Shown here one piece after another: positions 55 to 63,928 of a stretch of 64,000 nucleotides of DNA. The notes under the pieces were generated by a model that worked only from the letters and a program-made list of their open reading frames with translations, did no database searches and was not told where the DNA came from. The position numbers and the translations under genes were made by a program. This DNA comes from an uncultured Verrucomicrobiae bacterium (GTDB taxonomy: Bacteria > Verrucomicrobiota > Verrucomicrobiia > Chthoniobacterales > JAFAMB01). Position 1 is the stretch's first letter; the number at the start of each line of letters is the position of its first letter. Location: NCBI GenBank assembly GCA_963762565.1, contig CAVXLD010000001.1, forward strand, positions 106,498 through 170,497, given 5' to 3'.

Positions 55-250
55 AGGAGCTAGGAGCTAGAATCTAGGAGCTAGAAGTTCGCTTCGGGGT
101 TTTTGGATAGTGCAATCGAGGGACAGATTTCGTGCCGTCATTTAACATTCGTTGTGTAAGATTCGCGCTCATTTTGATGTCTCCTAGATCCTAGATTCTA
201 GCTTCTAGCTTCTAGCTCTCTAGCTCCTAGCTCCTAGCTTCTAGCTCCTA
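55..250. repeat. Inverted-word cassette, P arms (GGAGCTAG / CTAGCTCC heptamer arrays)
   Basis: Left arm 55-87 is aggagctaggagctagaatctaggagctagaag. Right arm 181-250 is the longer CTAG-rich reverse-complement array. Unique 93-nt core at 88-180. Confidence 0.85.
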
Positions 251-448
251 CAGCGACCAACAGCCGATAGCCAACGGGTAGGAGCCAGGTCTGCGCGCAC
301 GAGTGGAACTTCGATTGGCTGGGATGAACGACGTTCCCGCTCCATACGCTTTCCGGTTAAGGTTCATGCTGGATCTCCTATGCCTTTTTCCCTTGGCTAC
401 CGGCTGTTAGTCACTGGGAGTTGCCACAGCAAGGTAACGGGGATTCTT

Positions 449-563
449 TCACAACAAGGCCACAAAGGCGCCAAGACTGAACAGGTTCAAAAAAAGGCTT
501 TTTTCGAAATCCACTATCTGTCTCAGTCGTTTTGTCTCTGCGGCCTTTGCGACCTTGCTGTGA
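449..563. repeat. Inverted-word cassette, Z arms (CACAAAGG-type)
   Basis: tcacaacaaggccacaaaggc (449-469) pairs with gcctttgcgaccttgctgtga (543-563), 18/21 complementary. The core contains an A-run/T-run hairpin. Confidence 0.7.
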
Positions 564-766
564 ACTATTCTGTCTCCTTGTTGCGTTCTAAAAATTCACT
601 GATCATGATCAGCACACAAAGTTCGCGAAGCTGGGTCCGCTCTTCCGAACTGAGGCCGTCATCGTTTCCCGCCGATTCTTCCTGCCCCATGACCAATGGG
701 TTTATTTCATGTAATGGCTTCATTATTTTATTCGGTCCTTGAGACACCCATCTTCGTGGCTGAAAT

Positions 767-1516
767 TCATCCACCCACAACCCGAGGGGTAGGTTCTCCT
801 TCGTTTTCGTTGTTCTCGGCCACGATCTGACCGTCGAAGAGATGCACGGTTCGGTCCGCATAACCGGCAAATCGTGGATCATGGGTTACCATACAAATGG
901 TAGCGCCGCCCTGATGCAATTCGGATAGCAAATCCATTACGGCGTCACCGTTTTTGCTATCCAAGTTACCCGTTGGCTCGTCGGCCAGCAGGATCGATGG
1001 TGAACCAACCAACGCTCGGGCTACCGCCACGCGCTGTTGTTGTCCACCACTCAGCTGATTCGGATAGTGCCGTTGCCGATGGCTCATCCCGACTCGATCC
1101 AAGGATTGCAGAACCCGCTGTTTACGTTCGCTCCTGGGCATCTCGCCGCGATAGGTCAATGGTAGTTCGACGTTCTCGTATACCGTCAAGTCACCGATCA
1201 GGTTGAAACTCTGAAAAATGAATCCGATTTCCCGGTTACGGATCCTGGCTCTCTCGGACAGCTTCAGTTGTTCAACTTGCCGCCCATTCAGCCGGTAGGC
1301 CCCTTCCGAAGGCGAGTCTAGCAGACCTAGAATCGATAGGAGCGTCGATTTGCCGCAACCGCTCTGGCCGGCGATCGCCACATATTCGCCCTTCAAAATC
1401 TCGAGATAGATACCGGCTAACGCATGGGTTTCAATCTCGTCAGTAAGAAAGACTTTCTTTATCGCGTCTAGGTGGATGAGGGGTTCTGGGTTCACGTTTG
1501 GCAGTTCGCTGTTCAC
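767..1516 (-). CDS. ABC transporter ATP-binding protein (MacB/LolD-type)
   Basis: Walker A GQSGCGKST, ABC signature LSGGQQQRVAVARAL, Walker B ILLADEPTGNLD. GTG start. Same strand as the FtsX permease and HlyD adaptor. Confidence 0.9.
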   Translation of the reverse strand: MNSELPNVNPEPLIHLDAIKKVFLTDEIETHALAGIYLEILKGEYVAIAGQSGCGKSTLLSILGLLDSPSEGAYRLNGRQVEQLKLSERARIRNREIGFIFQSFNLIGDLTVYENVELPLTYRGEMPRSERKQRVLQSLDRVGMSHRQRHYPNQLSGGQQQRVAVARALVGSPSILLADEPTGNLDSKNGDAVMDLLSELHQGGATICMVTHDPRFAGYADRTVHLFDGQIVAENNENEGEPTPRVVGG

Positions 1517-1604
1517 GGTTGAGGTTGGCGGTTAGCGGTTTGCAGTTGTCGGTTAGCGGTTTCAATCGTTCTCGTCCTCGCTCTCGTAATCGTCCTCGTC
1601 CTCG
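1517..1604. repeat. Unpaired word arrays X' (CGGTTAG/CGGTTTG heptamers, 1517-1563) and Q (CGTCCT hexamers, 1567-1604)
   Basis: Tandem units are readable directly. The same words occur in inverted pairs at 9554-9860, 16685-16770, 29424-29587 and 50329-50457. Confidence 0.8.
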
Positions 1605-1783
1605 ATTCGCTTTGGTTTCTGTTCACGGTGGGCGTTTTAGCGTGGTAGGCACGAAATAGTAATCGGTGCTCGTGTTTCGCGCTGGGTAGCCGGTTAGCGA
1701 CCGTTGAACCACTTTCACTACACATGCGTGGTAACCAAAGTTTCGGATTCATTTGAAATTTTTTCGGAGTTTTATTTTTCCGT

Positions 1784-1814
1784 ACCAATCACCAATCACT
1801 TCTCACCTCTCACG
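1784..1814. repeat. H-type word array (CACCAAT / CACTTCT heptamers), unpaired
   Basis: accaatcaccaatcacttctcacctctcacg lies immediately downstream of the permease stop (1820). It is related to the arrays at 4465-4545 and 8107-8155. Confidence 0.7.
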
Positions 1815-1819
1815 TTCCC

Positions 1820-4246: not shown

Positions 4247-4256
4247 GGCGGGGGAA

Positions 4257-4545
4257 GTGATTAGTGATTAGTGATTGGTGGTGCTGCGCTCACGCCGATC
4301 GGCCGTTTTTTGCGTTCTCACGAAAAAAGCAACCTCACAGACCGGCAGCGAATACACTGGAAAGGGCGAATCGATTAGTCCTCTGGAGTCGTGGCGTTTC
4401 CAAAAGCTCTCACGATGCGCGATTTGTTTATTGAAAATTTTCATTTTGTTAGCTCCATCACGCTCACCAATCACCAATCACCAATCACCAATCACCAATC
4501 ACCAATCACCAATCACCAATCACCAATCACCAATCACCAATCACC
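4257..4545. repeat. Inverted-word cassette, H'/H arms (GTGATTA... vs CACCAAT x about 11.5)
   Basis: Left arm 4257-4283 is gtgattagtgattagtgattggtggtg. Right arm 4465-4545 is an 81-nt CACCAAT array. Unique core is about 180 nt. The cassette fills the permease/adaptor intercistronic gap. Confidence 0.9.
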
Positions 4546-5869
4546 TCAGTTGTATGCGTTCATGACTATCAAAGGCGCTGGTATCGGACAGAATCACGTG
4601 GTCACCCGGCGTTAGGCCATTTAGGATTACAACTTTGGTGGCGGAACCACGACCCAACTGGACCTTAGTTCTGGTGGCGGTGACACCATCTGCACTCAAC
4701 CGGAACAAACCGATAGTAGAATCATCCTGGCCGAAAGCGGGTCGACCGACGTAGATGGCATCAGCTAAACGTTCGAGTTCGATGGTTCCTTCCACACTCA
4801 GGTCGGGTCTAGCTCCTTTAGGTAGTTCGATCCCGTGAAAGGTAACATCGACGAGCACGGTCCCTTCGCTCACCGCCGGATCGATTCGAGCCACCGTACC
4901 GCTGACGATACTGCCGTTGCGCATATCAACTTGCGCGGTCTGCCCGATGGCAATGTCCCGGGCTTGAGTTTCCGGGATTTTGATTTGTGCTTTCAGCTTG
5001 GTGTTGTCCGCCACTCGGGCAAGGTTGGTGCCGGCAGAAACCCGCTGCCCGACCTCGACAGCGATTTGCTGGAGGACACCGTTCATTCCGGCTCGCACCT
5101 GTAGGGCATCGACCTGTCCATGGCGTAATTCGGCTTGGGCTTCGGCCTGTTCGAGATCCGTTTGGGCAACTGCCATTCGCGGCGCCATGGATCTCTTCGC
5201 GAATTCGTAACGCTGTTTCTGTACCTCAAAATTCGCGGATAATTCCGTGGCTGCGATCTTCGCCTTCTGAAAGTCGAGAGTCGAAATCAGGCCGCCTTTC
5301 GACAACCGTTCATCTGCCTCAAACTCGGCCTGAGCGGTGTCGCGATCGGCCTGAGCTTTGGTCAAGTTGGCCTGTTGCTCCAGCATTTCTCCTTCTAGCT
5401 CCGCTTGTAGCTGGGTCAGTTTCGCTTGAGCGCTCTTGGCTGCGGCATCCGCGTCCCTCGCTTCTTGCTCTAACTCGGCGCTGCTCAACTTCAATATCAC
5501 GGAATCCGCGGTTACTTCTGTTCCCGGCCAGATCACGATTTGCTCGACTCGGGCGTCGGTTCGGGCAGGGATCCAACGGACGTCTTCGGGAACTAGCGTT
5601 CCGATTCCACGCACGTCGCGAATCAGCGGTCCGCGCGACACGGTATCAATCCAGACCGAGCTTCGGTCTACCGAGGGCAGAGCCGGTTCAAGCCGGGCAA
5701 CAAAAATACTAACTCCGGTCACCACCGCTGCCGCCAGCAAAAGCAGCAACACATTTCTGCGCCATTTCTTTTGGCGGTAACCGATTCGCGGAATGTCCAT
5801 CCGAGAACCGTCCGCCGGGACAGAGAAAACTGGTTCTACTTTCTTTTTTGGCAGCACGCTGAGCGTCAC
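4541..5869 (-). CDS. HlyD/MacA-family periplasmic adaptor (membrane fusion protein)
   Basis: 442 aa with an N-terminal TM segment, a long coiled-coil (AELEQEARDADAAAKSAQAKLTQLQAELE...) and beta-barrel C-terminal domains. The stop TGA lies inside the last CACCAAT unit. Confidence 0.85.
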   Translation of the reverse strand: MTLSVLPKKKVEPVFSVPADGSRMDIPRIGYRQKKWRRNVLLLLLAAAVVTGVSIFVARLEPALPSVDRSSVWIDTVSRGPLIRDVRGIGTLVPEDVRWIPARTDARVEQIVIWPGTEVTADSVILKLSSAELEQEARDADAAAKSAQAKLTQLQAELEGEMLEQQANLTKAQADRDTAQAEFEADERLSKGGLISTLDFQKAKIAATELSANFEVQKQRYEFAKRSMAPRMAVAQTDLEQAEAQAELRHGQVDALQVRAGMNGVLQQIAVEVGQRVSAGTNLARVADNTKLKAQIKIPETQARDIAIGQTAQVDMRNGSIVSGTVARIDPAVSEGTVLVDVTFHGIELPKGARPDLSVEGTIELERLADAIYVGRPAFGQDDSTIGLFRLSADGVTATRTKVQLGRGSATKVVILNGLTPGDHVILSDTSAFDSHERIQLR

Positions 5870-6268: not shown

Positions 6269-6439
6269 GGAAGGGTGAGGGCAAAAGGGCGAAGGGGCGA
6301 GGTTTAAGTGGACTCAGTGGACGGAGTGCACGAAGTGTGCCGCGCCAAACGCCAAACGCCAAACGCCAAACGCCAAACGCCAAACGCCAAACGCCAAACG
6401 CCAAACGCCTTTCACCTTTCACTCTTCACCTTGCCTTCC
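6269..6439. repeat. Composite cassette: purine-rich G arms enclosing an R word (AGTGGACNN) and a K array (GCCAAAC x about 9)
   Basis: ggaagggtgagggcaaaagggcgaagg (6269-) pairs with cctttcacctttcactcttcacc (6408-6439). Inside are taagtggactcagtggacggagtg and a GCCAAAC array at 6344-6409. Confidence 0.8.
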
Positions 6440-7803: not shown

Positions 7804-7844
7804 TTAGAAGAGGTAATTTCACGCCAAGACGCAAAGACGCAAAG

Positions 7845-8155
7845 GTGATTCGTGATTCGTGATTAGTGATTAGTGATTGGTGATTGGTGGAGGCACTTGG
7901 TGGGGCGAGGCTCCCGAAAGAGTAAGAAGTTCTATCAGAGCTCCCGATGTTTCGCCGCTAAAGAGTTTGTTAGGCCTATTGACGCGCCGAGCCGGGGCCC
8001 AGCGATAGACCACGGCTCGGCGCCCTTAACGGCCTAGCATCGCGGGTCGGCGGGGTTAACCGCAAGGGCTTCGCTATCGCGATGGACCTTTCGGGAGCCT
8101 CGCCCCACCAATCACTTCTCACCAATCACCGATCACGTCTCGCCCTACCAATCAC
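7845..8155. repeat. Nested cassette: H' array / F1 element / H array
   Basis: gtgattcgtgattcgtgattagtgattagtgattggtgattggtgg (7845-7890) pairs with caccaatcacttctcaccaatcaccgatcac... (8107-8155), enclosing F1 copy 1. Confidence 0.85.
7899..8109. mobile_element. F1 palindromic element, copy 1 (MITE-like or structured RNA; 211 bp)
   Basis: Terminal inverted repeats ggtggggcgaggctcccgaaag / ctttcgggagcctcgccccacc. Conserved central hairpin gcgccgagccggggcccagcgatagaccacggctcggcgc (7984-8023). Confidence 0.75.
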
Positions 8156-9567
8156 AGCCCATATTGCTGCAACCGCCGGTAAAATGTGCTACGACTCAAA
8201 CCGAGAGCTTCCGCAGCGCGTCGAGCATTACCACCGTACCGATTAAGCGCTTTCTTGATTAACAACTTCTCGATGTCCTCCAAGGTCATTTCATCGAGGC
8301 GCGATGAATCAGACGGAGTTTGTCCTCCGATATCGGCCAAGCCGAGATCCGGAGGCCGGATCTGAGCACTGTCTGTCATCAGAACGGCGCGTTCTATGGT
8401 GTGATCGAGTTCCCGCACGTTCCCCGGCCACCGATGATAGGTGAGAGCCTTCTCGGCAGCAGGGTCAATCCCGGTAATCCGCTTAGCGTACCGGCTAGCA
8501 TGACGGTCCAAGAAGTGTTGGGCCAACGGAACGATGTCTTCCGGCCGGTCGCGCAAAGGCGGAATCTGAATCTCGACTGTTCGCAGTCGGAAATAGAGGT
8601 CTCGCCTGAACCGGCCCGATTCAACCTCAGCCGGTAAATCGGAATTCGTCGCCGACAAAAGCCTGACACTCGCGCGCCGAGTTTTGGAAGAACCGAGCCG
8701 CTCAAACTCGCCGGTCTCAACCGTGCGCAAAAGTTTGGCCTGTTGCGAGAGTGGAATATTCCCGATCTCATCCAGAAATAAGGTCCCTCCGTCGGCGATC
8801 TCGAAACGTCCGGCCCGCTCACTCTTGGCGTCCGTAAAGGCTCCTTTCATGTGGCCGAACAGTTCGCTTTCAAACAGGTTCTCGTTCAGGCCTCCCATGT
8901 TGACTGTCACAAAGGCCTTTTCAGCTCGCTGACTGGCGACATGAATCGCTCGCGCCACCACGCCCTTTCCCGTCCCGTTTTCGCCGGTGACCAAGACATT
9001 CGCATCAGAAGGCGCAATTCGTTGGATCGTCTCGACGACGGCGCGCATTCCCGATGATTGGGCGATTAGTCCAGTGGTCGCTAACGCCGTTTTCCGACTG
9101 GGCATCAGGCCGGCATCTCCGCGAAGGACCTGATTTTCCGACTCCAATCGCTCGCCGCGCAGCTCGGCAGCCGAAAAATCAAGCTGCGTGCGCACAATGG
9201 CCGAGACGCGCGAATTTTCCCAGGGCTTTTCAAAGAAGTCCCGAGCGCCGGTTCGCATGGCAGCAACCGCCAGATCGACCGTCGCCCACGCCGTCATGAC
9301 TACAATTGGTGGAGCGCCCTCGATTTTTTTGATCTGGGCGATAAGCTCGAGACCTTCCTGGCCGCCCGTCGTATCACGAGCGTAATTGAGGTCCAACAAT
9401 ATCAGCGAGACCTCGCTATTTTCGAGAGTCTCCATCACCTCTTTAGGAGAAGTCGCCAACGCAGTCTCGTACCCTTCCTTCGCGAGAAGTATTCGGAGCG
9501 CCTCCCGGACAGCGGCTTGGTCATCGGCGATCAGGATGCGGGGTTTTTTTGCGGGTTCTCGGTTCAC
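8152..9567 (-). CDS. Sigma-54-dependent response regulator (NtrC family enhancer-binding protein)
   Basis: REC domain (ILIADDQ...), AAA+ Walker A GENGTGKG, GAFTGA-type loop KGAFTDA, C-terminal Fis-type HTH LGLSRSTFYRRLQQYGL. The ORF is open to 9654, but residues 1-29 are repeat-encoded, so the GTG at 9567 (MNREPAKKPRILIADD) is the likelier start. Confidence 0.88.
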   Translation of the reverse strand: MNREPAKKPRILIADDQAAVREALRILLAKEGYETALATSPKEVMETLENSEVSLILLDLNYARDTTGGQEGLELIAQIKKIEGAPPIVVMTAWATVDLAVAAMRTGARDFFEKPWENSRVSAIVRTQLDFSAAELRGERLESENQVLRGDAGLMPSRKTALATTGLIAQSSGMRAVVETIQRIAPSDANVLVTGENGTGKGVVARAIHVASQRAEKAFVTVNMGGLNENLFESELFGHMKGAFTDAKSERAGRFEIADGGTLFLDEIGNIPLSQQAKLLRTVETGEFERLGSSKTRRASVRLLSATNSDLPAEVESGRFRRDLYFRLRTVEIQIPPLRDRPEDIVPLAQHFLDRHASRYAKRITGIDPAAEKALTYHRWPGNVRELDHTIERAVLMTDSAQIRPPDLGLADIGGQTPSDSSRLDEMTLEDIEKLLIKKALNRYGGNARRAAEALGLSRSTFYRRLQQYGL

Positions 9568-9860
9568 GGTTCGCAGTTCACGGTTGGCGGTTGCGGTTGG
9601 AGTTGTTCCTCGTCCTCGTTCACGTCGTCGTCCTCGTCCTCGAAAGGTTTGCACCGGGACCCAGCGGCAACATCCGCTCTATGTTGATACAGGAAATAAC
9701 AATCATCGAAAAAGCCTTACAAGATACGCGTGACCAGTAGAAAGGCCCATTCGCGAAGAATTAGCAACAACTTCTCATTGGTTGCGTGAGGATAACCGAG
9801 GGGACAACCGCAAACTGCAAGCCGCTAACCTTGACACCCTCGAGGACGAGGACGAGAACG
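9554..9860. repeat. Cassette with non-nested word order X'-Q-core-X-Q'
   Basis: X' at 9554-9600 (ggttcacggttcgcag...), Q at 9608-9642 (cctcgtcctcg...), X at 9805-9830 (caaccgcaaactgcaagccgctaacc), Q' at 9837-9860 (ccctcgaggacgaggacgagaacg). Confidence 0.8.
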
Positions 9861-9933
9861 ATTATCAGCCAGCAGCCGTGCCCCGCACTGTGTGCATTGA
9901 CGACGCTGAGGGTGTTAGTAGACTCCGCAACCA

Positions 9934-10296
9934 ATGGAAGTGATTAATCGTAACGAGGTCGCGGCATTCGTCGGACCGGATGGCGGCATTATCCGGGAGC
10001 TTGCTGCTAGCCGGAATTCATCGGCCCGAAAACAGAGTTTGGCCGAGGCTACGATTCCGGTCGGAGGAACGGTTACCGAACATTTTCACAAAACCACAGA
10101 AGAGTTTTACTACATCCTCAGCGGAACCGGCCTGATGAAGATCGAGGACGAACTGAGAGAAGTGGGTCCGGGAGACACGGTTATTATCATTCCCGGTAAA
10201 CGCCACAAGATCACAAACAACGGCCAAGTTCCGTTAGTTCTGCTGGCGTGCTGTTCACCTGAATGGACTGCAGAAGATCAGGTGCTGGTGGACTGA
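9934..10296 (+). CDS. Cupin domain protein
   Basis: 120 aa with the two cupin motifs GGTVTEHFHKTTEEFYYILSG and GDTVIIIPGKRHKITNNG. Confidence 0.75.
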   Translation: MEVINRNEVAAFVGPDGGIIRELAASRNSSARKQSLAEATIPVGGTVTEHFHKTTEEFYYILSGTGLMKIEDELREVGPGDTVIIIPGKRHKITNNGQVPLVLLACCSPEWTAEDQVLVD

Positions 10297-10304
10297 TTAA
10301 AACC

Positions 10305-10809
10305 AAATTTCACCACAGAGACACAGAGGACACGGAGAACTGATCACAGACTAATTATAACACTTTACATTTATGGTGTGTATGCGATGATCGGAATATG
10401 GAAGGGTTTAGAAATGACCTAACGCATGCCGCAATCGGCATGGCCATCGAAGTACACCGGGAGCTCGGCCCCGGGCTCCTCGAATCGGCTTACGAAGAAT
10501 GCCTCGCCTACGAGTTGCACCAATCCTCCTTGAGATTTGTTCGACAAAATCCCTTGCCTATCAAATACAAAGGCTTGGAGCTAGAATGCGGCTACCGGGT
10601 AGACCTCCTCATTGAAGATGAGCTAGTTATCGAGTTAAAGAGCGTCGAAGAGCTGCTCCCGATCTTCGATGCCCAAGTCTTAACCTACATGAAGTTGGCC
10701 GACAAGCATTTAGGGCTGTTGATCAATTTTAACGTGCCAATGCTGAAAACGGGAATCAAAAGATTTGTCCGTTGAGCTCCGTGTCCTCTGTGTCTCTGTG
10801 GTGAAATTT
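10305..10809. mobile_element. ORF-bearing cassette with perfect 33-bp terminal inverted repeats (U word CACAGAG-type)
   Basis: aaatttcaccacagagacacagaggacacggag (10305-10337) is the exact reverse complement of 10777-10809. It encloses only the GxxExxY gene. Confidence 0.85.
10398..10775 (+). CDS. GxxExxY family protein (PD-(D/E)XK-like)
   Basis: 125 aa. Motif GLLESAYEECLAYEL matches GxxExxY, followed by YRVDLLIEDELVIELKS, which is typical of the family. Confidence 0.85.
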   Translation: MEGFRNDLTHAAIGMAIEVHRELGPGLLESAYEECLAYELHQSSLRFVRQNPLPIKYKGLELECGYRVDLLIEDELVIELKSVEELLPIFDAQVLTYMKLADKHLGLLINFNVPMLKTGIKRFVR

Positions 10810-10813
10810 TGTT

Positions 10814-12175
<1,362 letters not shown>

Positions 12176-12375: not shown

Positions 12376-13070
12376 CCCGGTTTTTACCCCAAAGGGGTAA
12401 TAGGACTCAGCCTGGGGTTTTAACCCCAGGAATGCGCCAAAAAAAAGACCCCCGCCCTGAAAGGGCGGCAGATTTTTGGAATGACAAATACATCAATATA
12501 TTATGTAATAGATACAATGTCTTAATCACTGGCACGCATCTTGATTCACCTTGTCTTTTCGACCAAGAACCGGGTCGCGTTCTTGCAATCTCAACAGCTC
12601 CGATCTGAAGTTCACGCGTATCTTACTGCGACTTTACGCGCCCTGGATTGCGAACCCGTTCAGGTCGGCGGAGTCAGCGATCACGTACATCTACTCTTTG
12701 GTCTTTCCCGAACCGTCTCGCTGGTAGATGTAGTTAAACAGCTTAAAACCAGCTCCACGAAGACGATTCGAGAGAAAGGTCATCACGCTTTCAGTTGGCA
12801 AACCGGCTACGGCGCCTTCTCAGTCAGCGAATCGAATAAAAGCGCAGTCATCGACTACATCATCAATCAAGAAATCCACCATCGTAAGATGACATTCCAA
12901 GAAGAAATCAGGGTGCTTCTAACCAAGCACAGTATGCGTTTCGATGAGCGATACGTCTGGGATTGAGACACTCTCAATCTGCCGCCCTTTCAGGGCGGGG
13001 CATTTTTGGGGCGCATTCCTGGGGTTAAAACCCCAGGCTGAGTCCTATTACCCCTTCGGGGTACAACCCC
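12376..13070 (+). mobile_element. Y1 (HUH) transposase element flanked by about 95-bp inverted REP-like repeats (RAYT-like unit)
   Basis: Left 12376-12471 and right 12979-13070 are near-identical reverse complements. Each contains the hairpins ggggttttaacccc and cccgccctgaaagggcgg. Confidence 0.8.
12517..12966 (+). pseudogene. IS200-like / REP-associated tyrosine transposase homologue with an in-frame TAA at codon 3
   Basis: Reads ATG TCT TAA then SLARILIHLVFSTKNR. HUH motif at HVHLL and catalytic-Tyr region WQTGYGAFSV. The longest intact ORF restarts at TTG 12541. Confidence 0.7.
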
Positions 13071-14233: not shown

Positions 14234-14339
14234 ATGGGCTTCTTCGGTTTTGAGTGACGCGTACTCCCAGACGCATCATTGGAGGTGATATTCAGGCTAT
14301 CATTAAGTAGAGAATGAAACAACGGAAAGGACGACCTTT

Positions 14340-14361
14340 GGTGGGGCGAGCCTCCGGAAAG
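14340..14361. repeat. Solo F1-type terminal repeat (left-end half site)
   Basis: ggtggggcgagcctccggaaag directly abuts F2 copy a. No matching right end is nearby. Confidence 0.6.
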
Positions 14362-14364
14362 ACC

Positions 14365-14583
14365 GGTAGGGCGAAAATCTCGGCGCGCCCAACGGAAACC
14401 ATTTTTTTTGTGACTCAATCGCGCCGGATTTGAGCCATGCGTGGGCCCTGCATCGTCCGGGACGCAATCGTTCTGTGGCGTGTCGAACCGTCGGAAGTTG
14501 CGGCTCCACGGAGCGGCTCAAATCCGGCGCGGTTAGACGTTTTAAAAAACGCATCCTGGGCGCGCCGAGATTTTCGCCCTACC
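14365..14583. mobile_element. F2 palindromic element, copy a (219 bp)
   Basis: TIRs ggtagggcgaaaatctcggcgcg / cgcgccgagattttcgccctacc, plus an inner inverted repeat cgcgccggatttgagcc...ggctcaaatccggcgcg. A second copy is at 32815-33032. Confidence 0.8.
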
Positions 14584-15187
14584 GGTCCTGGGTCGGCAAA
14601 GCGTGGGTACCCAAGATTCCGCGATCCGGAATACCATACGCCGTGCGCGACTCTGCAATGATACCAAGAGTATCTTTCGACTCGGGGACGAGACGATAAA
14701 TACGCCCTTTGGGGATAATCACATAATCACCGGGACGATAAGGCAGGATGCCGAACTCGGTCTCGAAGACACCAACCCCACGATGGAAGAAATAGAGTTC
14801 GTCGCCATCGACCGTTCGATAGAGGAACGGCATTGCCTCACGCCTCCGAGTTAAATAGAGCGAGAACGAACGCCGGGCACATGCCGCCATGGATTGCATC
14901 AACAAGGCCGGCGTTCCTTTCGGGTCCGCTAAATCCAGCGTCTCGATCGTCCGGCAATCCATAGCGATCGGCTTTAGAGAACCTTCAATCCGCTTCCAGG
15001 CCGAGGGCATCTCTTTAGCGTAAAGATGGGTGGCTTCACCAAAAAAGCCTTCGCGGCCATACTCCATTTCATAGGTCCCTTCCGGGACACCAACGTGCGC
15101 CTGATTCGGATAAACGCCGTTTTTAAGGGGGAAGCGCTGCATGCTGGCAATGTATTCCGGGGGCCGGGGAGCACAAGAGCGTGGCAC
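14579..15187 (-). pseudogene. hmgA: Homogentisate 1,2-dioxygenase, N-terminal about half only (truncated at the F2 element)
   Basis: 202 aa. NQAHVGVPEGTYEMEYGREGFFGEATHLYAKEMPSAW and the cupin segment DGDELYFFHRGVGVFETEFGILPYRPGDYVIIPKG resemble the short bacterial HGD family. It lies upstream of hppD. The ORF ends on a TAG inside the F2 terminal repeat, and no C-terminal half follows. Confidence 0.6.
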
Positions 15188-15206
15188 GCGGTAAGGGGTG
15201 GCAGCA

Positions 15207-15439
15207 CAAGTAAGCAGTAAGCAGTTTAGGAGCTAGAATCTAGGAGCAAGGAGGGCGGGGGCTTGGCAGCCGACGGTGCGGGTGGCATGCGAGTAATCAG
15301 TGATCGGTAAGTCAGTAGTCAGTGCTGAAGGCGGATCGATCACTGCTTACTGCTTACTTTGAGACTCCTGGCTATCTTTCGTCCAACGTCCGCCAGACCC
15401 CCGACCCGTTAGCTCCTAGATTCTAGCTCCTAGCTCCTC
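15207..15439. repeat. Composite cassette: V word (AAGCAGT), P arms, inner V*/V' hairpin
   Basis: V at 15207-15224, P at 15226-15253 (ttaggagctagaatctaggagcaaggag), inner hairpin at about 15306-15357 (gtaagtcagtagtcagtg ... cactgcttactgcttac), P' at 15409-15439. Confidence 0.8.
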
Positions 15440-15481
15440 TTTTTTCGAGCTTTCTGAACGATTCCGGCTATAAACCCTGGC

Positions 15482-15928: not shown

Positions 15929-15969
15929 GCCTCCTGGCTCCTAGATTCTAGCTTCTAGCTTCTAGCTCC
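15929..15969. repeat. P' word array overlapping the TetR stop codon
   Basis: cctcctggctcctagattctagcttctagcttctagctcc. The last TetR residues KKGARS and the stop TAG are encoded by this array. Confidence 0.8.
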
Positions 15970-16684: not shown

Positions 16685-16770
16685 GGGTTTGCAGTTTGCG
16701 GTTGACGGTTGGGGGTGGCGGCTTCGGCCGTCAATGAACCGCTAACGGCAAACCGCCAACCGCCCAACCC
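16685..16770. repeat. X-word hairpin (GGTTTGC/GGTTGAC heptamers vs complement)
   Basis: gggtttgcagtttgcggttgacggttggg (16685-16713) pairs with gaaccgctaacggcaaaccgccaaccgcccaaccc (16736-16770), with a short loop. Confidence 0.8.
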
Positions 16771-16775
16771 TCAGG

Positions 16776-19743: not shown

Positions 19744-19785
19744 AAGACAGCGAATGGGCGAGTAGGCGCACCGGCGAAAGGGCGT

Positions 19786-20054
19786 GGTAGGGCGAGGCTC
19801 CCGAACACCAAGGGGTTTTCGCGGAGCTGGGATCGGACCAGACACCCATTATCGTTGCGACGCCTTAAATCCCGCCGAGCCGTGGTCCCAGCGCTCGCCA
19901 AACCGATGGGATCAGCTTCATTTTTCGGCCGTGCGCGGGGGGTGGCACGTTGAATATCCGCGGCTCGGCATTTCTAGCGGCCTTTGATCACGACGGGCAG
20001 CACACGTCGTGGTCCTTGGAAAAAGGTTTGGAAATGCGGGAGCCTCGCCCTACC
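19786..20054. mobile_element. F1 palindromic element, copy 2 (269 bp, enlarged centre)
   Basis: TIRs ggtagggcgaggctcccgaa / cgggagcctcgccctacc. The central ccgccgagccgtgg...ccgcggctcgg stem is retained around a roughly 58-bp larger interior. Confidence 0.7.
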
Positions 20055-20061
20055 AAACTGC

Positions 20062-29360: not shown

Positions 29361-29365
29361 TTTAG

Positions 29366-39919: not shown

Positions 39920-39973
39920 AGAGGAGTGACGACCATACAGGGAAGCGCCCTCTTTTCAACGGAAAAATTAAGG

Positions 39974-40217
39974 GAAAGGAGCTAGGAGCCAGAATCTAGG
40001 ATCTAGGAGAAAACGTGTAGGCGGGTTGGCGTATCGACGTTTCGGCGTGCGCTGGACGCCGCGATCGAATGGGATCCGCCTTCGCCAAGCCTTCGGCGCG
40101 ACGGGCTTTATGGGACCTGTAGGACCTACCTGATTGACGCATACCTCCGGTGAGTCTAATCGGCTTTGCCACACCCACACGCGCGTCTCTCCTGGCTCCT
40201 GGATTCTGGCTCCTTTC
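39974..40217. repeat. P-arm cassette with S-like inner words
   Basis: gaaaggagctaggagccagaatctaggatctaggag (39974-40009) pairs with ctcctggctcctggattctggctcctttc (40189-40217). Core is about 180 nt. Confidence 0.85.
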
Positions 40218-40394
40218 TTAGGGCGTCCGGCCGATCCAAGCAGGGATCTGAACAGGGATACTCGAACCGGAAACATAATCCTGGGAATAGCTGGCCGGAG
40301 CATACTCACGGTGACCGGCGATATAGACGAAAGCGAGGAGGTTCAGCGTTCCTACAGTGATGAAAGCGATCAGTGGCAAACGGAATTTTTTCAT
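40218..40394 (-). CDS. Small hypothetical membrane protein (58 aa)
   Basis: MKKFRLPLIAFITVGTLNLLAFVYIAGHREYAPASYSQDYVSGSSIPVQIPAWIGRTP. Below the ORF-track cutoff. One TM helix. Downstream of the PHP-GT4 gene on the same strand. Confidence 0.3.
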   Translation of the reverse strand: MKKFRLPLIAFITVGTLNLLAFVYIAGHREYAPASYSQDYVSGSSIPVQIPAWIGRTP

Positions 40395-43054: not shown

Positions 43055-43096
43055 GACACTAGCTCACGCTGTAGCGCTGGCAAATAATTAGATCGA

Positions 43097-43227
43097 AGCG
43101 CCCCGTGGAGCGTGCCTCGCTTGCGAGTCCGACGAACCACCCATTGCGTATTTCCTCTTTCCGCGGGCTGTCAGGCGAAAATATCTCAGAGTCGGCCTTG
43201 CAAGCGAGGCACGCTCCACGGGGCGCT
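43097..43227. repeat. F3 cassette with perfect 28-bp inverted repeat
   Basis: agcgccccgtggagcgtgcctcgcttgc (43097-43124) is the exact reverse complement of 43200-43227. 75-nt core. Lies between DUF2334 and PHP-GT4, and the right arm contains the DUF2334 stop codon. Confidence 0.9.
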
Positions 43228-43990
43228 ACTTCCCCACCTCAACGCTCGCCGCCTTGAGATGATTGGCGATAAACTTTTCGTACGATAACGGTTGCCGGTC
43301 CTGAAGAGCAGCGGTGACCAAGCTCTTAACATGGGACCAAACTGCGGGAATCTCGCAATCTGCGGGGTGAATCCCGATCCGCAGCAACGGTTTATCTCGT
43401 AACCGAGAAAGCAGACCTTGGTTCCAAGCCAGGCTCACCATCCGCCTCCAAGGGGCTCGAGTGCTCCACACCAACGATCGTGAGTAATAATTGTGAACCC
43501 CGTCAAAAACTTTAACGGAGCCCACATTGGTAATGTAAGAAAACCCCACCTTGCGGACAGCGGCTTCCGCTTCGTAGCCCAAAAGCCAAGCCGGTGCTAC
43601 GAACCCGTTCAGCTTTCGGTCCAGGAATGCCAAGTCCTCAATACCCATTTGGAGGCGGGAAATCGCTTCATCCCTGGCGAGATCGAAAAATTCTCCTTCA
43701 CCGGCCGTGTACACTTGAGTCGTGAATTTGGTAATACCGGCATCCGTTGGTTTGGGATTGCGAGCGTGATAATAGCCGTGCAGCACGGGTTCGTAACCTT
43801 GTCGTACTCGATCTGATACCCACTCTTTGAATGCAACGTTATCCCGGACCGGCGCGTTGTGGTGATGGTTTGGGATGACCAGTAACGAGCCCTCGGAGAC
43901 ACCCAGGCTGCGAAGGGCCTCTATAATTTTGTCACAGCTCGCCTGAGTCAAAGGCGATACATCATGAACGGAAACGACGAGAGCTCTCAT
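43226..43990 (-). CDS. DUF2334-family protein (polysaccharide-deacetylase-like fold)
   Basis: MRALVVSVHDVSPLTQASCDKIIEALRSLGV...LVIPNHHH...VLHGYYH is typical of DUF2334. The ATG at 43990 overlaps the upstream gene by 29 nt. Confidence 0.7.
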   Translation of the reverse strand: MRALVVSVHDVSPLTQASCDKIIEALRSLGVSEGSLLVIPNHHHNAPVRDNVAFKEWVSDRVRQGYEPVLHGYYHARNPKPTDAGITKFTTQVYTAGEGEFFDLARDEAISRLQMGIEDLAFLDRKLNGFVAPAWLLGYEAEAAVRKVGFSYITNVGSVKVFDGVHNYYSRSLVWSTRAPWRRMVSLAWNQGLLSRLRDKPLLRIGIHPADCEIPAVWSHVKSLVTAALQDRQPLSYEKFIANHLKAASVEVGK

Positions 43991-46800: not shown

Positions 46801-47011
46801 GGTAGGGCGAGGCTCCCGAACCTACACAAAGGGTTAGCAAAGGCTAAACTCCGAGGCGAATCGCTGATACGCTGTACCGACAAACGCGCCGAGCCGTGGC
46901 CCAGCGATAGATCACGGCTCGGCGCGCTTCATGGCCTATGAACACCGTTCGCCAGGTGACGTACATGGCCCTTCGCGATAGCGATGGATTCTTCGGGAGC
47001 CTCGCCCCACC
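46801..47011. mobile_element. F1 palindromic element, copy 3 (211 bp)
   Basis: TIRs ggtagggcgaggctcccgaa / ttcgggagcctcgccccacc. The central hairpin at 46886-46925 is 37/40 identical to copy 1, and the length is the same as copy 1. Confidence 0.8.
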
Positions 47012-47034
47012 AATGATTGTAGCCTAAATCCTCC

Positions 47035-50185: not shown

Positions 50186-50457
50186 CGCGTTTGGCGTTTG
50201 GCGTTTGGCGTTTTGGCGTTTTGGCGTTTGGCGTTTGGCGTTGGGCGTTTGGCGTTGGGCGTTGGGCGTTGGGCGTTTGGCGTTGGGCGTTGGGCGTTGG
50301 GCGGTTCACCGTTCGCTGGTTGGCTTTTCGTGCTCGTCCTCGTGCTCGACGAAACCCGGGCCACCTCGAAAAGAGATCCATCATCCCTGTTCTCCTTTTG
50401 CTGGCCATCAATCGCTTTCAGGCGTCGAACGCGCTCTCGAGGACGAGGACGAGAACG
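50186..50457. repeat. K' array (GTTTGGC/GTTGGGC x about 17) followed by a Q-core-Q' cassette
   Basis: Heptamer array at 50186-50304. Q at 50329-50348 (cgtgctcgtcctcgtgctcg) and Q' at 50434-50457 (ctctcgaggacgaggacgagaacg). Confidence 0.9.
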
Positions 50458-50518
50458 ATAGGACCCCTTGCACGAGAGCGAGCCTCACGTATATGATTTC
50501 GCGACCAAACGTTCCCCT

Positions 50519-52047: not shown

Positions 52048-52062
52048 CGGTACGTAATTTAT

Positions 52063-52352
52063 CCGCAGATTGCGCAGATTACGCAGATTTTTTTTCGGTG
52101 GGGCGAGGCCATAAACCGTGGAGCGTGCCTCGCTTGCGAAGCCGTGGTGAGCAACGCTGACGATGTGGCAGCGCATCCGCCGGCTGCGCTCTTGCGTGTG
52201 AAGTTGCAGGAGGCGGGAGATAGAGCGCTGACCGAAATAGGGCCTGCTTCAAAATGTTGCTTTGTTTACCACGGCCTCGCAAGCGAGGCGCGCTCCAAGG
52301 CTTCGCCTCGCCCTACCCGAAAAAAAATCTGCATAATCCCCGTAATCTGTGG
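52063..52352. repeat. Three-layer nested palindrome (T / F1-like / F3 words) filling the thyA-folE2 divergent region
   Basis: T at 52063-52095 pairs with 52320-52352. cggtggggcgaggc (52096-52109) pairs with cttcgcctcgccctacccg (52301-52319). F3 arms at 52116-52147 pair with 52269-52300. Core is about 120 nt. Confidence 0.9.
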
Positions 52353-52382
52353 ATATTTGGCCTGACAAAACGCGAGTATAGA

Positions 52383-55689: not shown

Positions 55690-55929
55690 AAGATGAACTG
55701 CGATTGTATCAGGCGCCGCACGTTCTCCACGCGACCAAACGGCCACGTCGATGAACGTCAGCATTTGTAAAAAGATCGATCTACAGGCCAATCCCAGAGA
55801 GAGCGGGGTGATATCTGGTAAGACCGGAGAGAGATCTTAAGGATTTAATAGGTTCACCTATTAAACTCGCTAACATGCGACTAGTTGCGCAGGTCGAACA
55901 CGTTGGAATAGCTCGGCGGTGCGTTCCAA

Positions 55930-56026
55930 GTAAGCAGTAAGCAGTAAGCAGTGCTCAGCAATCAGTCGCGCGGCTGATTGAGCAGCACGCCGTTACCGAT
56001 CACTGCTTACCGCTTACCGCTCACTT
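55930..56026. repeat. V-word hairpin cassette (GTAAGCA heptamers vs complement)
   Basis: gtaagcagtaagcagtaagcagtg (55930-53) pairs with cactgcttaccgcttaccgctcactt (56001-26). Confidence 0.8.
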
Positions 56027-56082
56027 ATGGCGCTGGCGAGACCAGGGCTTTAAACCATCCACTTTCTTTGAACGTGAATGGA

Positions 56083-60963: not shown

Positions 60964-61265
60964 ATGAAAATCACGATGAACAACGACGAACTTCGCGCGC
61001 TCAATCAAAACGGAAAATCTATCAGATTGCCTGGGTCACCCGGGACCTAGAAAAGAGCATGAGAGCTTGGGTGGAAAACCTGAAAATCGGGCCTTGGACG
61101 GTGCTCACATTCACTGACCAATCGCTCAAGTACCTTGAGGTCGACGACAAACCGGTTACTGCGCCTTTCAAGTTCTTGATCGGGATTTCCTGGATCGGCG
61201 GCGAGAGAACACTTAGCCGCTACAAAAAGAAACCTAACCGCAGATTAACGCAGATTTACGCTTAA
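60964..61265 (+). pseudogene. VOC (glyoxalase/dioxygenase-fold) family fragment, frameshifted and truncated by a T-word cassette
   Basis: MKITMNNDELRALNQNGK shifts frame in the run ggaaaatc into IYQIAWVTRDLEKSMRAWVENLKIGPWTVL. Homology stops at ISWIG, where the cgcagatt repeats begin. Confidence 0.45.
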
Positions 61266-61441
61266 AGACAATAAGACCACGAACGGACTCGAATGTTAAC
61301 AACCGGTTCACGGAGCGCGGAGAGGCCATTATTATCTCTCTAGCTTACCCTTTTCTCAATCGGCTTGCCGAAAACTCGTGTCAATTCGTGTGCATTCGCG
61401 GTTTATTCCAAATCTGCGTCAATCTGCGTTCATCTGCGGTT
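61236..61441. repeat. T-word cassette (CGCAGATTN units inverted around about 148-nt core)
   Basis: aaccgcagattaacgcagatttacgc (61236-61261) pairs with aaatctgcgtcaatctgcgttcatctgcggtt (61410-61441). Confidence 0.85.
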
Positions 61442-61464
61442 CGTCTCTTTTGGCCCGCAGCAGT

Positions 61465-62241
61465 CTAGCGCGGCGTCCAGACAGCGGGCCACGTCGATCC
61501 CACTTGAGTGAACCCATATTTCGCCAGAATTGGCCGGCTGGTTGGAAGGGCGTCAACCCGCAGGTAGTGTGTTGATTTGAATTCCTTAGCCCGCGCGATC
61601 CGAGCCGACAAAAGAGCCCGATAAACTCCGCGGCCACGAAATTCATCGAGCACGCTACCGCCCCATAGCCCGGCAAACTGGGTTTGGGAGGAAGCAGTCA
61701 CTCGCCCCATACCAGCCGGCTTTTCATTCACATAGGCGATGAAGGCAAGATCCCGCCGGAGCGGGTCATTTTGATTGAACCGAAGTAACTCACCTGTGGT
61801 AAAAGATGCTCCCCAAATCTCCGTTTCAAGCTGAAGGAAACACTCGATCGCGCGCTCGTCATTGACCGGTCTAACGGTGATGCCTGCCGGGAACGGCGCC
61901 ACTAGACTTGGCGGCAGGGCCTCTAAATCCAGAATCATGAGCGCTTCTTCTGTTCCTATCGCGAACCCCCGTTGACGCAACCGTTCAAGCAAATCAGCCG
62001 GTTCATCGTGACGGTAAACCTTCCATTCAAAAGTTCGCGCCAACTTGTTGAAATAGTCGATCTCGGAGTCGATGATTTTTACCGATTCTTCAGCGGAGAA
62101 GTTCGAATAGACGATAGCGTTACGGTTCCCGAGTTTGGCGATCCCGCGGACCACACCCTGCGTCCTTTCCAATGTGGTGTCTGGGTCAGGTATCGTCTGC
62201 CGCTCGGTGTCAAGACACGACAATATTTCTAGGTAGTTCAT
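61465..62241 (-). CDS. GNAT family N-acetyltransferase
   Basis: 258 aa. Acetyl-CoA motif A LDEFRGRGVYRALLSARIARA. C-terminal ILAKYGF. Confidence 0.85.
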   Translation of the reverse strand: MNYLEILSCLDTERQTIPDPDTTLERTQGVVRGIAKLGNRNAIVYSNFSAEESVKIIDSEIDYFNKLARTFEWKVYRHDEPADLLERLRQRGFAIGTEEALMILDLEALPPSLVAPFPAGITVRPVNDERAIECFLQLETEIWGASFTTGELLRFNQNDPLRRDLAFIAYVNEKPAGMGRVTASSQTQFAGLWGGSVLDEFRGRGVYRALLSARIARAKEFKSTHYLRVDALPTSRPILAKYGFTQVGSTWPAVWTPR

Positions 62242-62270
62242 CGGTGGTTGTACGGCTCGTCTAGGGTATC

Positions 62271-63814
62271 ATGAGTCGCAACTTCGTTGGTGCAACCGTT
62301 CGACCAAATCGGCTTGACAGGATTGCGTGTATTTGCCAGAAGCGCTTTGTGTCTCGCTCTGTTTGGTCGAGCTCGCGGGATTGCTCTGAGTCCGGTGCGA
62401 GCGCAGGTAGGTTTTTGGCCATTCGGCTGGTCGTGAGTAGTTTTTCACGCGTTATAGTTGGGTCGTTAGCATTGTTTTCAGCTAGTTCGCCATCGGGCCT
62501 CCAGGCACAGTACAGTGATACCAAGATCGGCGAATACCTAAACTATGCATTGGGGGCTACTAACGGCAGTGTTTATGTTGGCTATAACTCGATCGGTTAT
62601 GCATCACCGGTCATTTACACGACCGCTGCCGGTTGGACCGGTCTACCGTATTCGGCCGGATTTGACCCATCATACCCCTATTATGGATATGCGAACGGGG
62701 TCAGCCGCGATGGCACGGTGGTATCAGGTTATACCTGGGGAGAAGTTTCCAACGGAGTGTATGTGCAGTACGCGGTCTATTGGGTAAACGGTACAGAACA
62801 AATAGTCCCTGCGCCGCCGGATGATGCCCAACCTAGCCTAATGGCTGCGACCGCCGTTTCGGGTGATTGGAGTACACTATTGGTCGAGGATACAACCGGC
62901 TCTAATCCATCGAAGGTCGAGACGTATGTGTACCAGATCGCAACCCAAACTTTCACTTCGGTTGGTTATTTAGGCACGGCGACTCAGCAGGCGTACGGCG
63001 CTGCGCTCAACTATGACGGTTCACAGCCGCCACGGGGTACAGCAACTTAGACAACGGTGACAACGATGGTTTCCTGTGGACCCAGAAATCGGGCCTGCAA
63101 GATCTTGGTGTCCCCCAACCGGGAACTTACTATGTTGAGCCCACATGCATGAGCGATGACGGAACGGTCATTTTCGGCCGGTACACCGTGGGCGGCGGAT
63201 GGGTTGGGTTCCGGTACACTACGTCCGGTGGATTTCAAGATACTGGAGGTATCAGTATCAGCGGATGCACGGCCGACGGAACCGAAGCCTTCGGGATTGA
63301 GAACCTCTATTTTCCTGCTATTTGGACCACAACCGTGGGTGGTGGCTATCTTGATTTTTGGCTGAAAGCGCATGGAATCAAGGCCAAACTAGGCGATCTT
63401 ATGGCACCGGTAACCATCTCGCCGGACGGTTCTCTATTAACCTCAATCGGACCGTTTGTGTATCTGAACGACCAAATCTGGTACGGAACTTATCAGATCG
63501 GGTTACCTTCTCCGCTTAACATTGCACCGCTCATCACAACTAAAGTTGTTAACTTATCGACGGCTTATGAGACGACTTTAACTGTTCCTGCGCCCGGTGT
63601 GATTCAATACGCGGAATTTACCACCGGGGCGACCGCTGGGGTTGTCGCTAAACCCAAGAACGCCGCGAGCTTTCATCTCAAAGCCAACGGTTCATTCTCC
63701 TATACGCCGAAAAATGGGTATAGAGGTAAGACCGATGATTTTACCTATCACTTAGTGGGTCCAGGCGGAACGAGTACCGCTGCGCAGGTGAAAATCTACG
63801 TCGCAGCGCCTTGA
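62271..63814 (+). pseudogene. Secreted repeat protein (HAF-family-like repeats + C-terminal Ig/cadherin-like domain), interrupted by one frameshift near 63015-63050
   Basis: Recurrent xxVSxDGTVVxG / FxW...G..DLG units (ANGVSRDGTVVSGYTW, CMSDDGTVIFGRYT, DNDGFLWTQKSGLQDLG). The second frame is open from about 63015, so the two ORFs read as one protein. The start codon is uncertain. Confidence 0.5.
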
Positions 63815-63850
63815 GCGCCGGCTGCGGAAGCTCGCCTTAGGCTCGCTTCC

Positions 63851-63928
63851 GAATAGCAAATAGCAGATAGCAAATAGCAAATTCACGCTACCCAACGCTG
63901 GGTTCGCTGACCCTTTGCTATTTGCTAT
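63851..63928. repeat. Y-word cassette (AATAGCA heptamers inverted)
   Basis: gaatagcaaatagcagatagcaaatagcaaa (63851-63881) pairs with tttgctatttgctat (63914-63928). Arm lengths are unequal. Confidence 0.8.

Follow-up and report, generated by a model that had tools for sequence, protein, structure and literature searches.

What are the short tandem-repeat words that recur, as mirrored arrays, between the genes of a 64-kb stretch of genomic DNA (hereafter the window) from an uncultured member of the Verrucomicrobiota? An earlier note on this DNA, made from the letters alone, described them as cassettes in which an array of a short unit, a core, and the reverse complement of the array follow one another. 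We found that the words are parts of longer conserved arms and that the cassettes make up a community of at least 8-10 small, gene-free palindromic dispersed-repeat families, which are probably mobile without encoding their own means of movement.

We analyzed the 64-kb window together with about 1.6 Mb of related loci from soil metagenomes and Chthoniobacterales, cited below by their L numbers, and negative statements about relatives refer to this material. The gene map of the window came from Pfam and NCBIfam profile matches, and near-identical relatives were retrieved by exact-protein look-up. RibBA relatives place the host in the order Chthoniobacterales, and the closest RibBA matches, at 94% and 92% protein identity, were on contigs L003 and L004 of metagenome-assembled genomes. 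An assembly artefact, a possibility raised in the earlier note, was excluded because at least 10 contigs of different, independent assemblies, each 96-99.9% identical to parts of the window, all carried the cassettes. The noisy long-read contig L001 (European Nucleotide Archive) was disregarded: about 600 nt of poly-T-rich junk (its positions 4304-4929) lies inside the 4257-4545 cassette, probably from faulty assembly or basecalling at the hairpin. L001 also has an IS481-family insertion (660-2110) within a CGCCAAA/CACCAAT array, the one at 6278-6432 of the window.

Inverted pairing and layered arms

Tandem arrays were called with Tandem Repeats Finder (TRF; period 5-10 nt, overlapping calls merged), which gave 56 arrays of mostly 7-nt period and 1761 nt in total; the non-coding 18% of the window held 89% of the array bases. 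Similar arrays less than 400 nt apart were inverted in 12 cases and direct in 0, and the same test across 79 loci of other Chthoniobacterales species gave 23:0. The best inverted repeat beat all 175 size-matched coding control segments in 15 of the 35 intergenic regions and exceeded the controls' 95th percentile in 26. Folding z-scores measured against dinucleotide shuffles reached -14.5 in intergenic regions, and a DNA fold tool returned z = -10.9 for 31312-31510. These counts bear out the hairpin-forming class with a modular vocabulary that the earlier note proposed. Its statement that nearly every intergenic region carries such a cassette was too strong: tandem-word arms occur in about 15 regions and non-tandem arms in about 6 further ones. 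The examples it listed hold, except that 6269-6439 is a run of four unpaired arrays. As it also described, cassettes occur in tandem, convergent, and divergent gene contexts. Many of them separate members of a single operon (macAB/ADOP, rib).

The AGGAGCT arm is a conserved, dispersed sequence of about 35 nt, (A)AGGAGCTAGGAGCYAGAATCYAGGAGCTAGGAGGG, with the odd unit AGAATCT at the identical place in every copy from the window, L002, L003, and L004. A 25-mer of this arm has 12 copies in the window at up to 3 mismatches (0 expected) and exact matches in at least 120 soil-metagenome contigs. Among the matches listed, the reverse complement lay on the inner side, at most 600 nt away, for 68 of 127 AGGAGCT arms and on the outer side for 0 of 127, and a single arm had a direct copy nearby. 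Every word in the window has one fixed polarity toward the interior. The tandem words are thus parts of conserved arms and not free-standing microsatellites. Arms in general are conserved sequences of 25-45 nt with an internal periodicity of 6-10 nt, or else non-tandem modules, namely W1 (GGTAGGGCGAGGCTCCCGAAAG), W2 (GGTAGGGCGAAAATCTCGGCGCG), W3, and W4, to which the internal hairpin W5 is added. Both W1 and W2 open with 5' GTAG, the tag of the repetitive extragenic palindromes (REPs) linked to REP-associated tyrosine transposases (RAYTs).

Modules are typically layered, with tandem-word arms outermost and W1 elements or ATGGGACTY 9-mers innermost, although the order is not strict and AGTAAKC arrays stand both outside and inside AGGAGCT arms. 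We confirmed the nested order that had been read at 29366-29636, the crossing order at 9554-9860, and the unequal arms of 27 and 81 nt at 4257/4465. Because the partner words of the crossing cassette (9554-9861) cross instead of nesting, both pairs cannot form in one hairpin. The composite half-arm seen there, a GGTTNNC array followed by a TCGTCC array, occurs at three window sites (9554-9861, 1498-1605, and 50305-50348).

Many of the cores that the earlier note called unique are continued palindrome or nested modules. Between 78 and 97 bp pair across the center in 31312-31510, 14336-14590, 29362-29642, and 52058-52357, and palindromy extends through "unique" layers that lie outside the vocabulary words. 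In L084, L134, and L188 pairing continues beyond the arms for some 23-25 further nt of unique sequence. The two arms of a cassette also co-vary, as where left AGGAGCCA accompanies right TGGCTCCT. The cores of 59 distinct AGGAGCT cassettes fell into 43 clusters.

Turnover at orthologous sites and dispersed copies

Species whose genes share about 83% nucleotide identity keep the same gene order but differ in the cassette that a given intergenic region holds, with orthologous regions holding different cassettes in the window, L003, L004, and L006. The spacer between ribBA and ribH contains W2-W3 in the window, ACGCAAAG 8-mer arms in L003, AGGAGCT arms enclosing W1 and then W5 in L004, and AACCTGT heptamer arms in L006-L008, and is 14-60 nt long without a hairpin in most Chthoniobacterales (80 species compared). 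Cassettes at this site are therefore lineage-restricted gains and not an ancestral functional hairpin. A conserved function of the site was considered and rejected, as no hairpin is conserved across the 80 species.

Turnover is also visible among close strains. Arrays differ by indels of whole units, in keeping with the independent change of unit number that the earlier note had read from unequal arms, and in L207 both arms of 16686-16772 gained one unit. L003, L004, L207, L208, and L211 carry an AATCAGT cassette of 143-148 nt. The window, L209, L210, and L212 lack exactly this segment, with CATTTG joined to GAATACTGAATC; its absence from the window clade is a loss. A 273-nt palindromic insert is unique to L208. 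At 29362-29642, strains L207, L208, and L211 have other sequence in place of the left arm and interior and retain the right arm alone. L209 has a 932-nt deletion with both ends inside cassettes, which removes a gene fragment. Against L211 (98.5% identity) every indel of at least 6 nt in the window falls at an intergenic coordinate, most of them in inspected cassettes, and close strains lose or swap cassettes with the neighboring genes unchanged. The comparison of orthologous intergenic regions that the earlier note suggested thus found both presence/absence and unit-number variation.

The fragment lost from L209 between two cassettes belongs to a homogentisate dioxygenase gene (related span 14234-14578). 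The window copy (14579-15187, - strand) is itself truncated to 202 aa with the HgmA_N domain only and abuts the W1-W2-W3 cassette; L208 has an intact gene of 398 aa.

Composite units also have paralogues at loci that we counted as unrelated when they encode none of the window's genes. A composite arm of about 95 nt (AGGAGCT, a unique layer, TCGTCC) recurs in at least 12 unrelated metagenome loci, and the W1 element of about 215 nt in 8 unrelated loci in addition to three window copies. The W2-W3 element of about 225 nt has copies at 14361-14585 and 32811-33034 and in L203, L084, L148, and L202, and the AATAGCA cassette has one in L144. The earlier note held that the cassettes are not copies of one mobile element. 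No single element accounts for them, as it said, but the paralogues make them families of repeat elements and not unrelated constructs. Whole-cassette paralogy was rejected within the set of 59 AGGAGCT cassettes, where similar cores had similar flanks and so represent orthologues (except L089/L119); it emerged only in the wider search beyond that set.

Interiors can also change within standing arms. At the 15205 locus of strain L207 the interior is homologous to 39984-40214 of the window, and the outer right arm and flank are unchanged; read from these alignments, the interior would have entered either by transposing into the arms or through gene conversion that they primed. In 67 of 75 cassettes the candidate target-site duplication was 0-1 nt long, no more than chance would give, and the polymorphic sites had no clear duplication. 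Some AGGAGCT arm pairs lie 611-1609 nt apart and by eye enclose open reading frames (ORFs) resembling acylphosphatase and aldo-keto reductase genes, with no recognizable transposase between them.

Table 1 Cassettes and related elements in the 64-kb window (paired lengths refer to pairing across the center; TIR, terminal inverted repeat).
Position	Strand	Feature	Remarks
55..250	.	AGGAGCT-arm cassette	Arms at 55-87 (left) and 181-250 (right, about 10 units); flanked on both sides by operon genes of the - strand
449..563	.	Palindromic cassette, GCAAAGG-type words	38 bp paired
1498..1810	.	Unpaired composite half, GGTTNNC x9 then TCGTCC x6	z = -0.2, no hairpin; CACCAAT array of another family begins at 1784; probably two fused half-cassettes
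4254..4547	.	GTGATTR / CACCAAT arms, 27 + 81 nt	Unit number varies between strains
6278..6432	.	Four adjacent arrays (AGGGCGAA, AAGTGGACG, CGCCAAA x9.6, CCTTTCA)	No inverted partners; L002 has 2 fewer CGCCAAA units
7821..8144	.	ACGCAAAG + GTGATT/CACCAAT arms around W1 element of about 215 nt	W1 element at 7897-8111 with arms TTGGTGGGGCGAGGCTCCCGAAAG and internal hairpin W5
9554..9861	.	Crossing cassette	GGTTNNC array, TCCTCG array, core, AACC-type array, CGAGGA array
10296..10818	+	GxxExxY (PDDEXK_3) cassette	Gene 10398-10775 in 42-nt inverted repeat, CACAGAG words
12376..13070	+	Y1 (HUH) transposase element	Gene 12541-12966, TIRs of about 95 nt
14336..14590	.	W1, then palindrome W2 (GTAG-tagged)-W3-core-W3'-W2'	87 bp paired; paralogue of 32811-33034; abuts truncated hmgA
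15205..15442	.	AGTAAGC + AGGAGCT arms, inner AGTAATC hairpin	
15930..15967	.	Solo AGCTCCT arm	Between convergent genes
16686..16772	.	GGTTTGC / AACCGCC hairpin	Other strains gain units in one or both arms
19784..20056	.	Copy of the W1 element, no tandem-word arms	
29362..29642	.	Nested cassette	91 bp paired; AGGAGCT arm, unique layer, TCGTCC array, core, CGAGGA array, unique layer', AGCTCCT arm
31312..31510	.	AGGAGCT arms around AGTGGACNN / GTCCAC arrays	Almost fully palindromic, 78 bp
32810..33086	.	W2-W3 element + solo W1'	rib operon, between ribBA and ribH
37764..37940	.	Multi-hairpin cassette	z = -14.5; absent in L004, which has only the small native palindrome AGCCTGCAAGGCT there
39972..40218	.	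AGGAGCT cassette	Inner modules of TGGGCGTG type and ATGGGACC type
43095..43229	.	W4 pair (CCGTGGAGCGTGCCTCGCTTGCGAG)	37 nt, 95% complementary
46880..47014	.	Partial W1/W5 element	Right half only
50187..50460	.	GCGTTTG x16 (unpaired), GGTT-type array, TCGTGC / CGAGGA hairpin	Hairpin 50326-50460
52058..52357	.	CGCAGATT arms enclosing W1-like layer, then W4 + core	97 bp paired, z = -13.1
55926..56028	.	AGTAAGC / GCTTACY hairpin	
61234..61443	.	CGCAGATTNN / AATCTGCG cassette	
63850..63930	.	AATAGCA / TTTGCTA hairpin	Paralogue at unrelated locus L144

Several neighboring features were recorded alongside the cassettes. The gene for ribosomal protein S14, rpsN (39650-39919, - strand), directly adjoins an AGGAGCT cassette and is 84-91% conserved between species, much more than the genes on either side. 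Coding tandem repeats with units of 18, 27, and 36 nt and up to 5 copies (54799-54960) lie in a WXXGXW-repeat protein gene (54745-55791, - strand) and have no relation to the cassettes between genes. A truncated ORF of 38 aa that resembles Phd/YefM-type antitoxins (36594-36707, + strand; Pfam E = 3e-4, below the gathering score) sits in an intergenic region of 470 nt that measures only about 100 nt in L003 and L004. A segment of about 250 nt without a Pfam match (60933-61200) is 81-86% conserved beside an MFS_3 gene in L123, L125, and L140, and is separated from that gene in the window by a methyltransferase gene (60434-60913); it may be a small conserved gene or RNA.

Candidate enzymes and rival explanations

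The earlier note counted two ORF-bearing cassettes as variants of the same design, and neither has stood up as such. The first is the Y1 transposase element, whose gene matches Y1_Tnp (Pfam E = 1.6e-21) with the HUH (HVH) motif visible in the alignment, and whose terminal inverted repeats (TIRs) of about 95 nt are each built of three small hairpins and are unrelated to the tandem-word arms. It occurs at the same locus in the distant species L218, is missing in strain L203, where a W2-W3 cassette stands in its place, and has a derivative in L156 that is a solo TIR pair (8061-8217). As in TIRtron- and RAYT-like systems, it is maintained vertically as a single copy, and its repeats also occur as solo pairs at other places. 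A second Y1 family (L103, 4037-4459) is 46% identical and has TIRs of its own (GGCGCGAAGCGCTG...TTTAGCCTAGGCTGAGTCT). By eye, the interior of an AGGAGCT cassette in L118 (about 2440-2600) resembles the L103 TIRs; if the resemblance holds, this would be a Y1-associated repeat nested within tandem-word arms. The Y1 genes found (window, L218, L103) are all flanked by their own unrelated TIRs and none by word arms.

A scan of the whole window at the Rfam gathering threshold matched only Acido-Lenti-1 (RF01687), at 13018-13063, which is one hairpin of a Y1 TIR (compare 12411-12430). The "RNA motif" is here probably a transposon-end or REPIN-like DNA hairpin (REPINs being REP doublets that form hairpins). 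The scan found no rRNA in the window, and no tRNA was found there either. Nothing inside the cores was matched, so there was no sign of the small-RNA cargo that the earlier note had suggested for them.

The GxxExxY gene of the second ORF-bearing cassette is stable and passed on vertically, and its stem covaries. Homologues with 74-86% protein identity share the same purine-salvage cluster, and the stem of 31-42 bp is conserved across four species (window 10296-10818; L215 2414-2930; L216 2406-2920; L218 2439-2931), with three G-C to A-U double changes that keep its pairing and an invariant TTATAACACTTTA upstream of the ORF. The L218 cassette has the opposite orientation with respect to its neighbors, which suggests inversion between the arms. 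We rejected GxxExxY as a mobile or mobilizing gene, as its homologues are orthologues at one site and no further copies were found in the loci examined; the gene is not mobile on this timescale.

We consider it probable that the cassettes are non-autonomous palindromic mobile repeat families, comparable to REPINs, bacterial interspersed mosaic elements (BIMEs), and miniature inverted-repeat transposable elements (MITEs), with stems like those of short tandemly repeated repetitive (STRR) sequences. Their propagation would involve a hairpin of single-stranded DNA on which HUH/Y1 transposases of the RAYT/TIRYT type act in trans, and/or ectopic gene conversion primed on shared arms, and insertion would prefer the apex or center of existing palindromes. 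Tandem words would arise and be resized through replication slippage, arm complementarity would be kept by co-inheritance and template switching within the palindrome, and slippage across the hairpin would account for losses. The majority of copies are likely to be neutral or selfish, with any effects on transcripts secondary. Hairpin recognition and duplication-free insertion are established for Y1-type enzymes of the IS200/IS605 group and have been proposed for RAYTs (PMC3116915). Y1 transposases with TIRs do exist in the lineage, and the putative hairpin-acting enzyme of the earlier note is a reasonable suggestion. That Y1 enzymes in particular drive the tandem-word families is conceivable yet doubtful.

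Several observations weigh against mobility. Only one gain/loss event could be polarized, and it is a loss; no de novo insertion was caught among the strains compared. No transposase gene in the related sequence is flanked by any tandem-word arm. The cores of 43 of the 59 AGGAGCT cassettes have no detected relative, unlike those of classical MITEs and REPINs. Arms are far better conserved than cores across species, which also fits selection on function. Tandem-word arms are not palindromic and lack GTAG, and thus fall outside the REP definition, and nesting alone would not yield a crossing order of words like that at 9554-9861.

A bolder form of mobility is that the cassettes constitute a distinct class of mobile DNA: gene-less palindromes whose arms are tandem recognition words, spreading into hairpin apices so that they grow like an onion, by means of a structure-specific Chthoniobacterales enzyme or a repurposed Y1. 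The shared arms would then serve as portable homology for the exchange of interiors. We regard this as unlikely.

We give similarly little credence to the idea that the cassettes are functional RNA hairpins under selection, acting as bidirectional terminators, insulators, mRNA stabilizers, or RNase III sites in the manner of the REP/BIME sequences of E. coli, with a vocabulary that mirrors stems compatible with the host machinery. The very stable folds (z to -14.5), the many positions within operons (macAB/ADOP, rib), the conservation of arms far above cores, and the T-runs that follow some right arms would all suit such a role, as would the GxxExxY stem with its three compensatory changes. 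Against it, stem mismatches in co-directional contexts comprised 24 G·U on the sense transcript against 18 A·C, no sense excess, and the sense strand folded better in 12 of 19 co-directional regions, so that neither asymmetry gave evidence of selection on the transcript in this small sample. The RNase III substrates envisaged in the earlier note consequently lack support from strand asymmetry. Cassettes also lie between divergent promoters, where 4 of 9 regions exceeded all inverted-repeat controls, and the hairpin-free ribBA-ribH spacer (14-60 nt) of most Chthoniobacterales and the loss or swapping of cassettes between close strains without change in neighboring genes both speak against a retained RNA function.

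Origin in place, without mobility, would have hairpins acquire mirrored arrays by slippage and quasi-palindrome template switching, with shared words arising by convergence. The whole-unit arm indels, including the extra unit in both 16686-16772 arms of L207, are what this process predicts. CACCAAT is moreover the terminal heptamer of the W1 element (...CCCCACCAAT), and the 37764-37940 cassette repeats the native L004 palindrome AGCCTGCA/GCAGGCT. Identical arms of 25-35 nt with the same variant unit nevertheless occur at 120 or more unrelated loci in several species, and composite units have paralogues. Convergence cannot yield this pattern, and slippage explains resizing and not spread; we hold an origin purely in place to be quite improbable.

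It is very unlikely that the arrays are binding sites of lineage-specific DNA- or RNA-binding proteins, one per word, with the inverted layout serving dimers or looping; nucleoid-organizing, regulatory, or OB-fold/CSP-like heptamer-binding proteins would be the candidates. Vocabularies are indeed lineage-specific (AACCTGT in L006-L008, AATGACG in Udaeobacter-like loci), arms have a strictly constant orientation, and single arrays without partners occur, but no candidate protein was found, each genome has many different words, palindromy runs through layers outside the vocabulary, and rapid presence/absence turnover at orthologous sites argues against site-specific regulation. Templated end-addition at double-strand breaks by a telomerase-like or reverse transcriptase-like enzyme, with both 3' ends extended into inverted arrays around filler, would account for the fixed 5'-arm polarity (68:0), the unequal arm lengths, and new layers inside old ones, as if hairpin apices break, and is extremely unlikely given that arms share cassette-specific variants, that non-tandem arms and unique palindromic layers behave alike, that whole composite units are copied, and that the window has no reverse transcriptase.

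Relation to known repeat systems

Our literature search found no description of such elements in Chthoniobacterales. Heptamer-type intergenic repeats, long noted in some bacterial genomes and unexplained, can be stems of dispersed palindromic elements and not microsatellites, and the near-identical strains of soil metagenomes are a natural system for following the gain, resizing, swap, and deletion of palindromes. This bears on the spread of REPIN-like DNA, on how genome rearrangements start, and on intergenic contig breaks in abundant soil Verrucomicrobiota. As the fastest-evolving sites of the lineage, the cassettes can serve as strain markers. They are also open to misannotation as ORFs or structured RNAs, as with Acido-Lenti-1 on the transposase TIR.

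The cassettes are not CRISPR arrays, as the earlier note had concluded: those consist of direct repeats of 24-48 nt with regular spacers, whereas cassette units are 6-10 nt long and head-to-tail, and neighboring similar arrays form 0 direct pairs. Its REP/BIME and STRR analogies were the right ones. The BIMEs of enterobacteria are mosaics of motifs in alternating orientation, both intergenic and within operons, and the cassettes are alike in this. BIMEs combine REP variants with fixed linkers, however, and are neither concentric palindromes nor built of 6-10-nt tandem units. With MITEs, including nested ones, the cassettes share small size (<500 bp), non-coding content, terminal inverted repeats, and presence/absence polymorphism, and W1, W2-W3, and the AGGAGCT-unique layer-TCGTCC composite have a conserved extent and dispersed paralogues. 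Unlike MITEs they lack target-site duplications, no autonomous element sharing their ends was found, and their interiors are mostly non-homologous (59 AGGAGCT cores, 43 clusters).

Only the two ORF-bearing elements invite other comparisons. TIRtrons and their TIRYT transposases (Di Nocera et al. 2013, PMC3733652) match the Y1 element at 12376-13070 alone. The GxxExxY cassette resembles the 23S rRNA intervening sequences with GxxExxY or S23p ORFs in having an ORF enclosed by a conserved covarying stem; unlike them it lies in a purine-salvage cluster at one site and is vertically inherited. Such intervening sequences sit within an rRNA helix and are cut out by RNase III; the cassettes lie between protein-coding genes, and Rfam matched no rRNA in the window.

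The closest likeness in arrangement is to REPINs and the REP/RAYT system (Bertels & Rainey 2011, PMC3116915; Di Nocera et al. 2013, PMC3733652), with which the cassettes share an extragenic location. GTAG REPs have already been reported in Verrucomicrobia (Opitutus terrae; PMC3733652). As in REPINs, two conserved inverted arms flank a less conserved spacer and form a long hairpin, copies are dispersed without target-site duplication, clusters and nesting occur, and the same genome carries a single-copy Y1 transposase with related flanking repeats. The inverted doublet is seen in the array pairs (12:0 and 23:0) and in the arms with inner partners (68 of 127, against 0 with outer ones, among the matches listed). 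A REP unit itself is an imperfect palindrome of 20-40 nt, commonly with an unpaired GTAG or CGTC at its 5' end, and these features are found only in W2 (GTAG with GGGCG...CGCCC) and weakly in W1; tandem-word arms such as AGGAGCT, GTGATTR, and TCGTCC have no internal stem or GTAG. REPIN spacers are roughly 30 nt and of conserved length, whereas cassette spacers are 13-485 nt and mostly unrelated to each other. The cassettes further differ in having many families per genome and a layered order, and no RAYT flanked by cassette arms was found in the roughly 1.6 Mb sampled.

With STRR and TAACTGA repeats the cassettes share lineage-specific, intergenic tandem heptamers whose copy number varies between relatives. 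The words differ from the STRR1-3 consensus sequences, whose hosts are cyanobacteria and not Verrucomicrobiota. The TAACTGA heptamer repeats of Beggiatoaceae, Cyanobacteria, and Bacteroidetes are almost exclusively intergenic, and those of BOGUAY number 169 direct against 1 indirect (MacGregor 2015, PMC4679880). In contrast to these direct sets, the arrays of the cassettes are overwhelmingly inverted and form the stems of hairpins.

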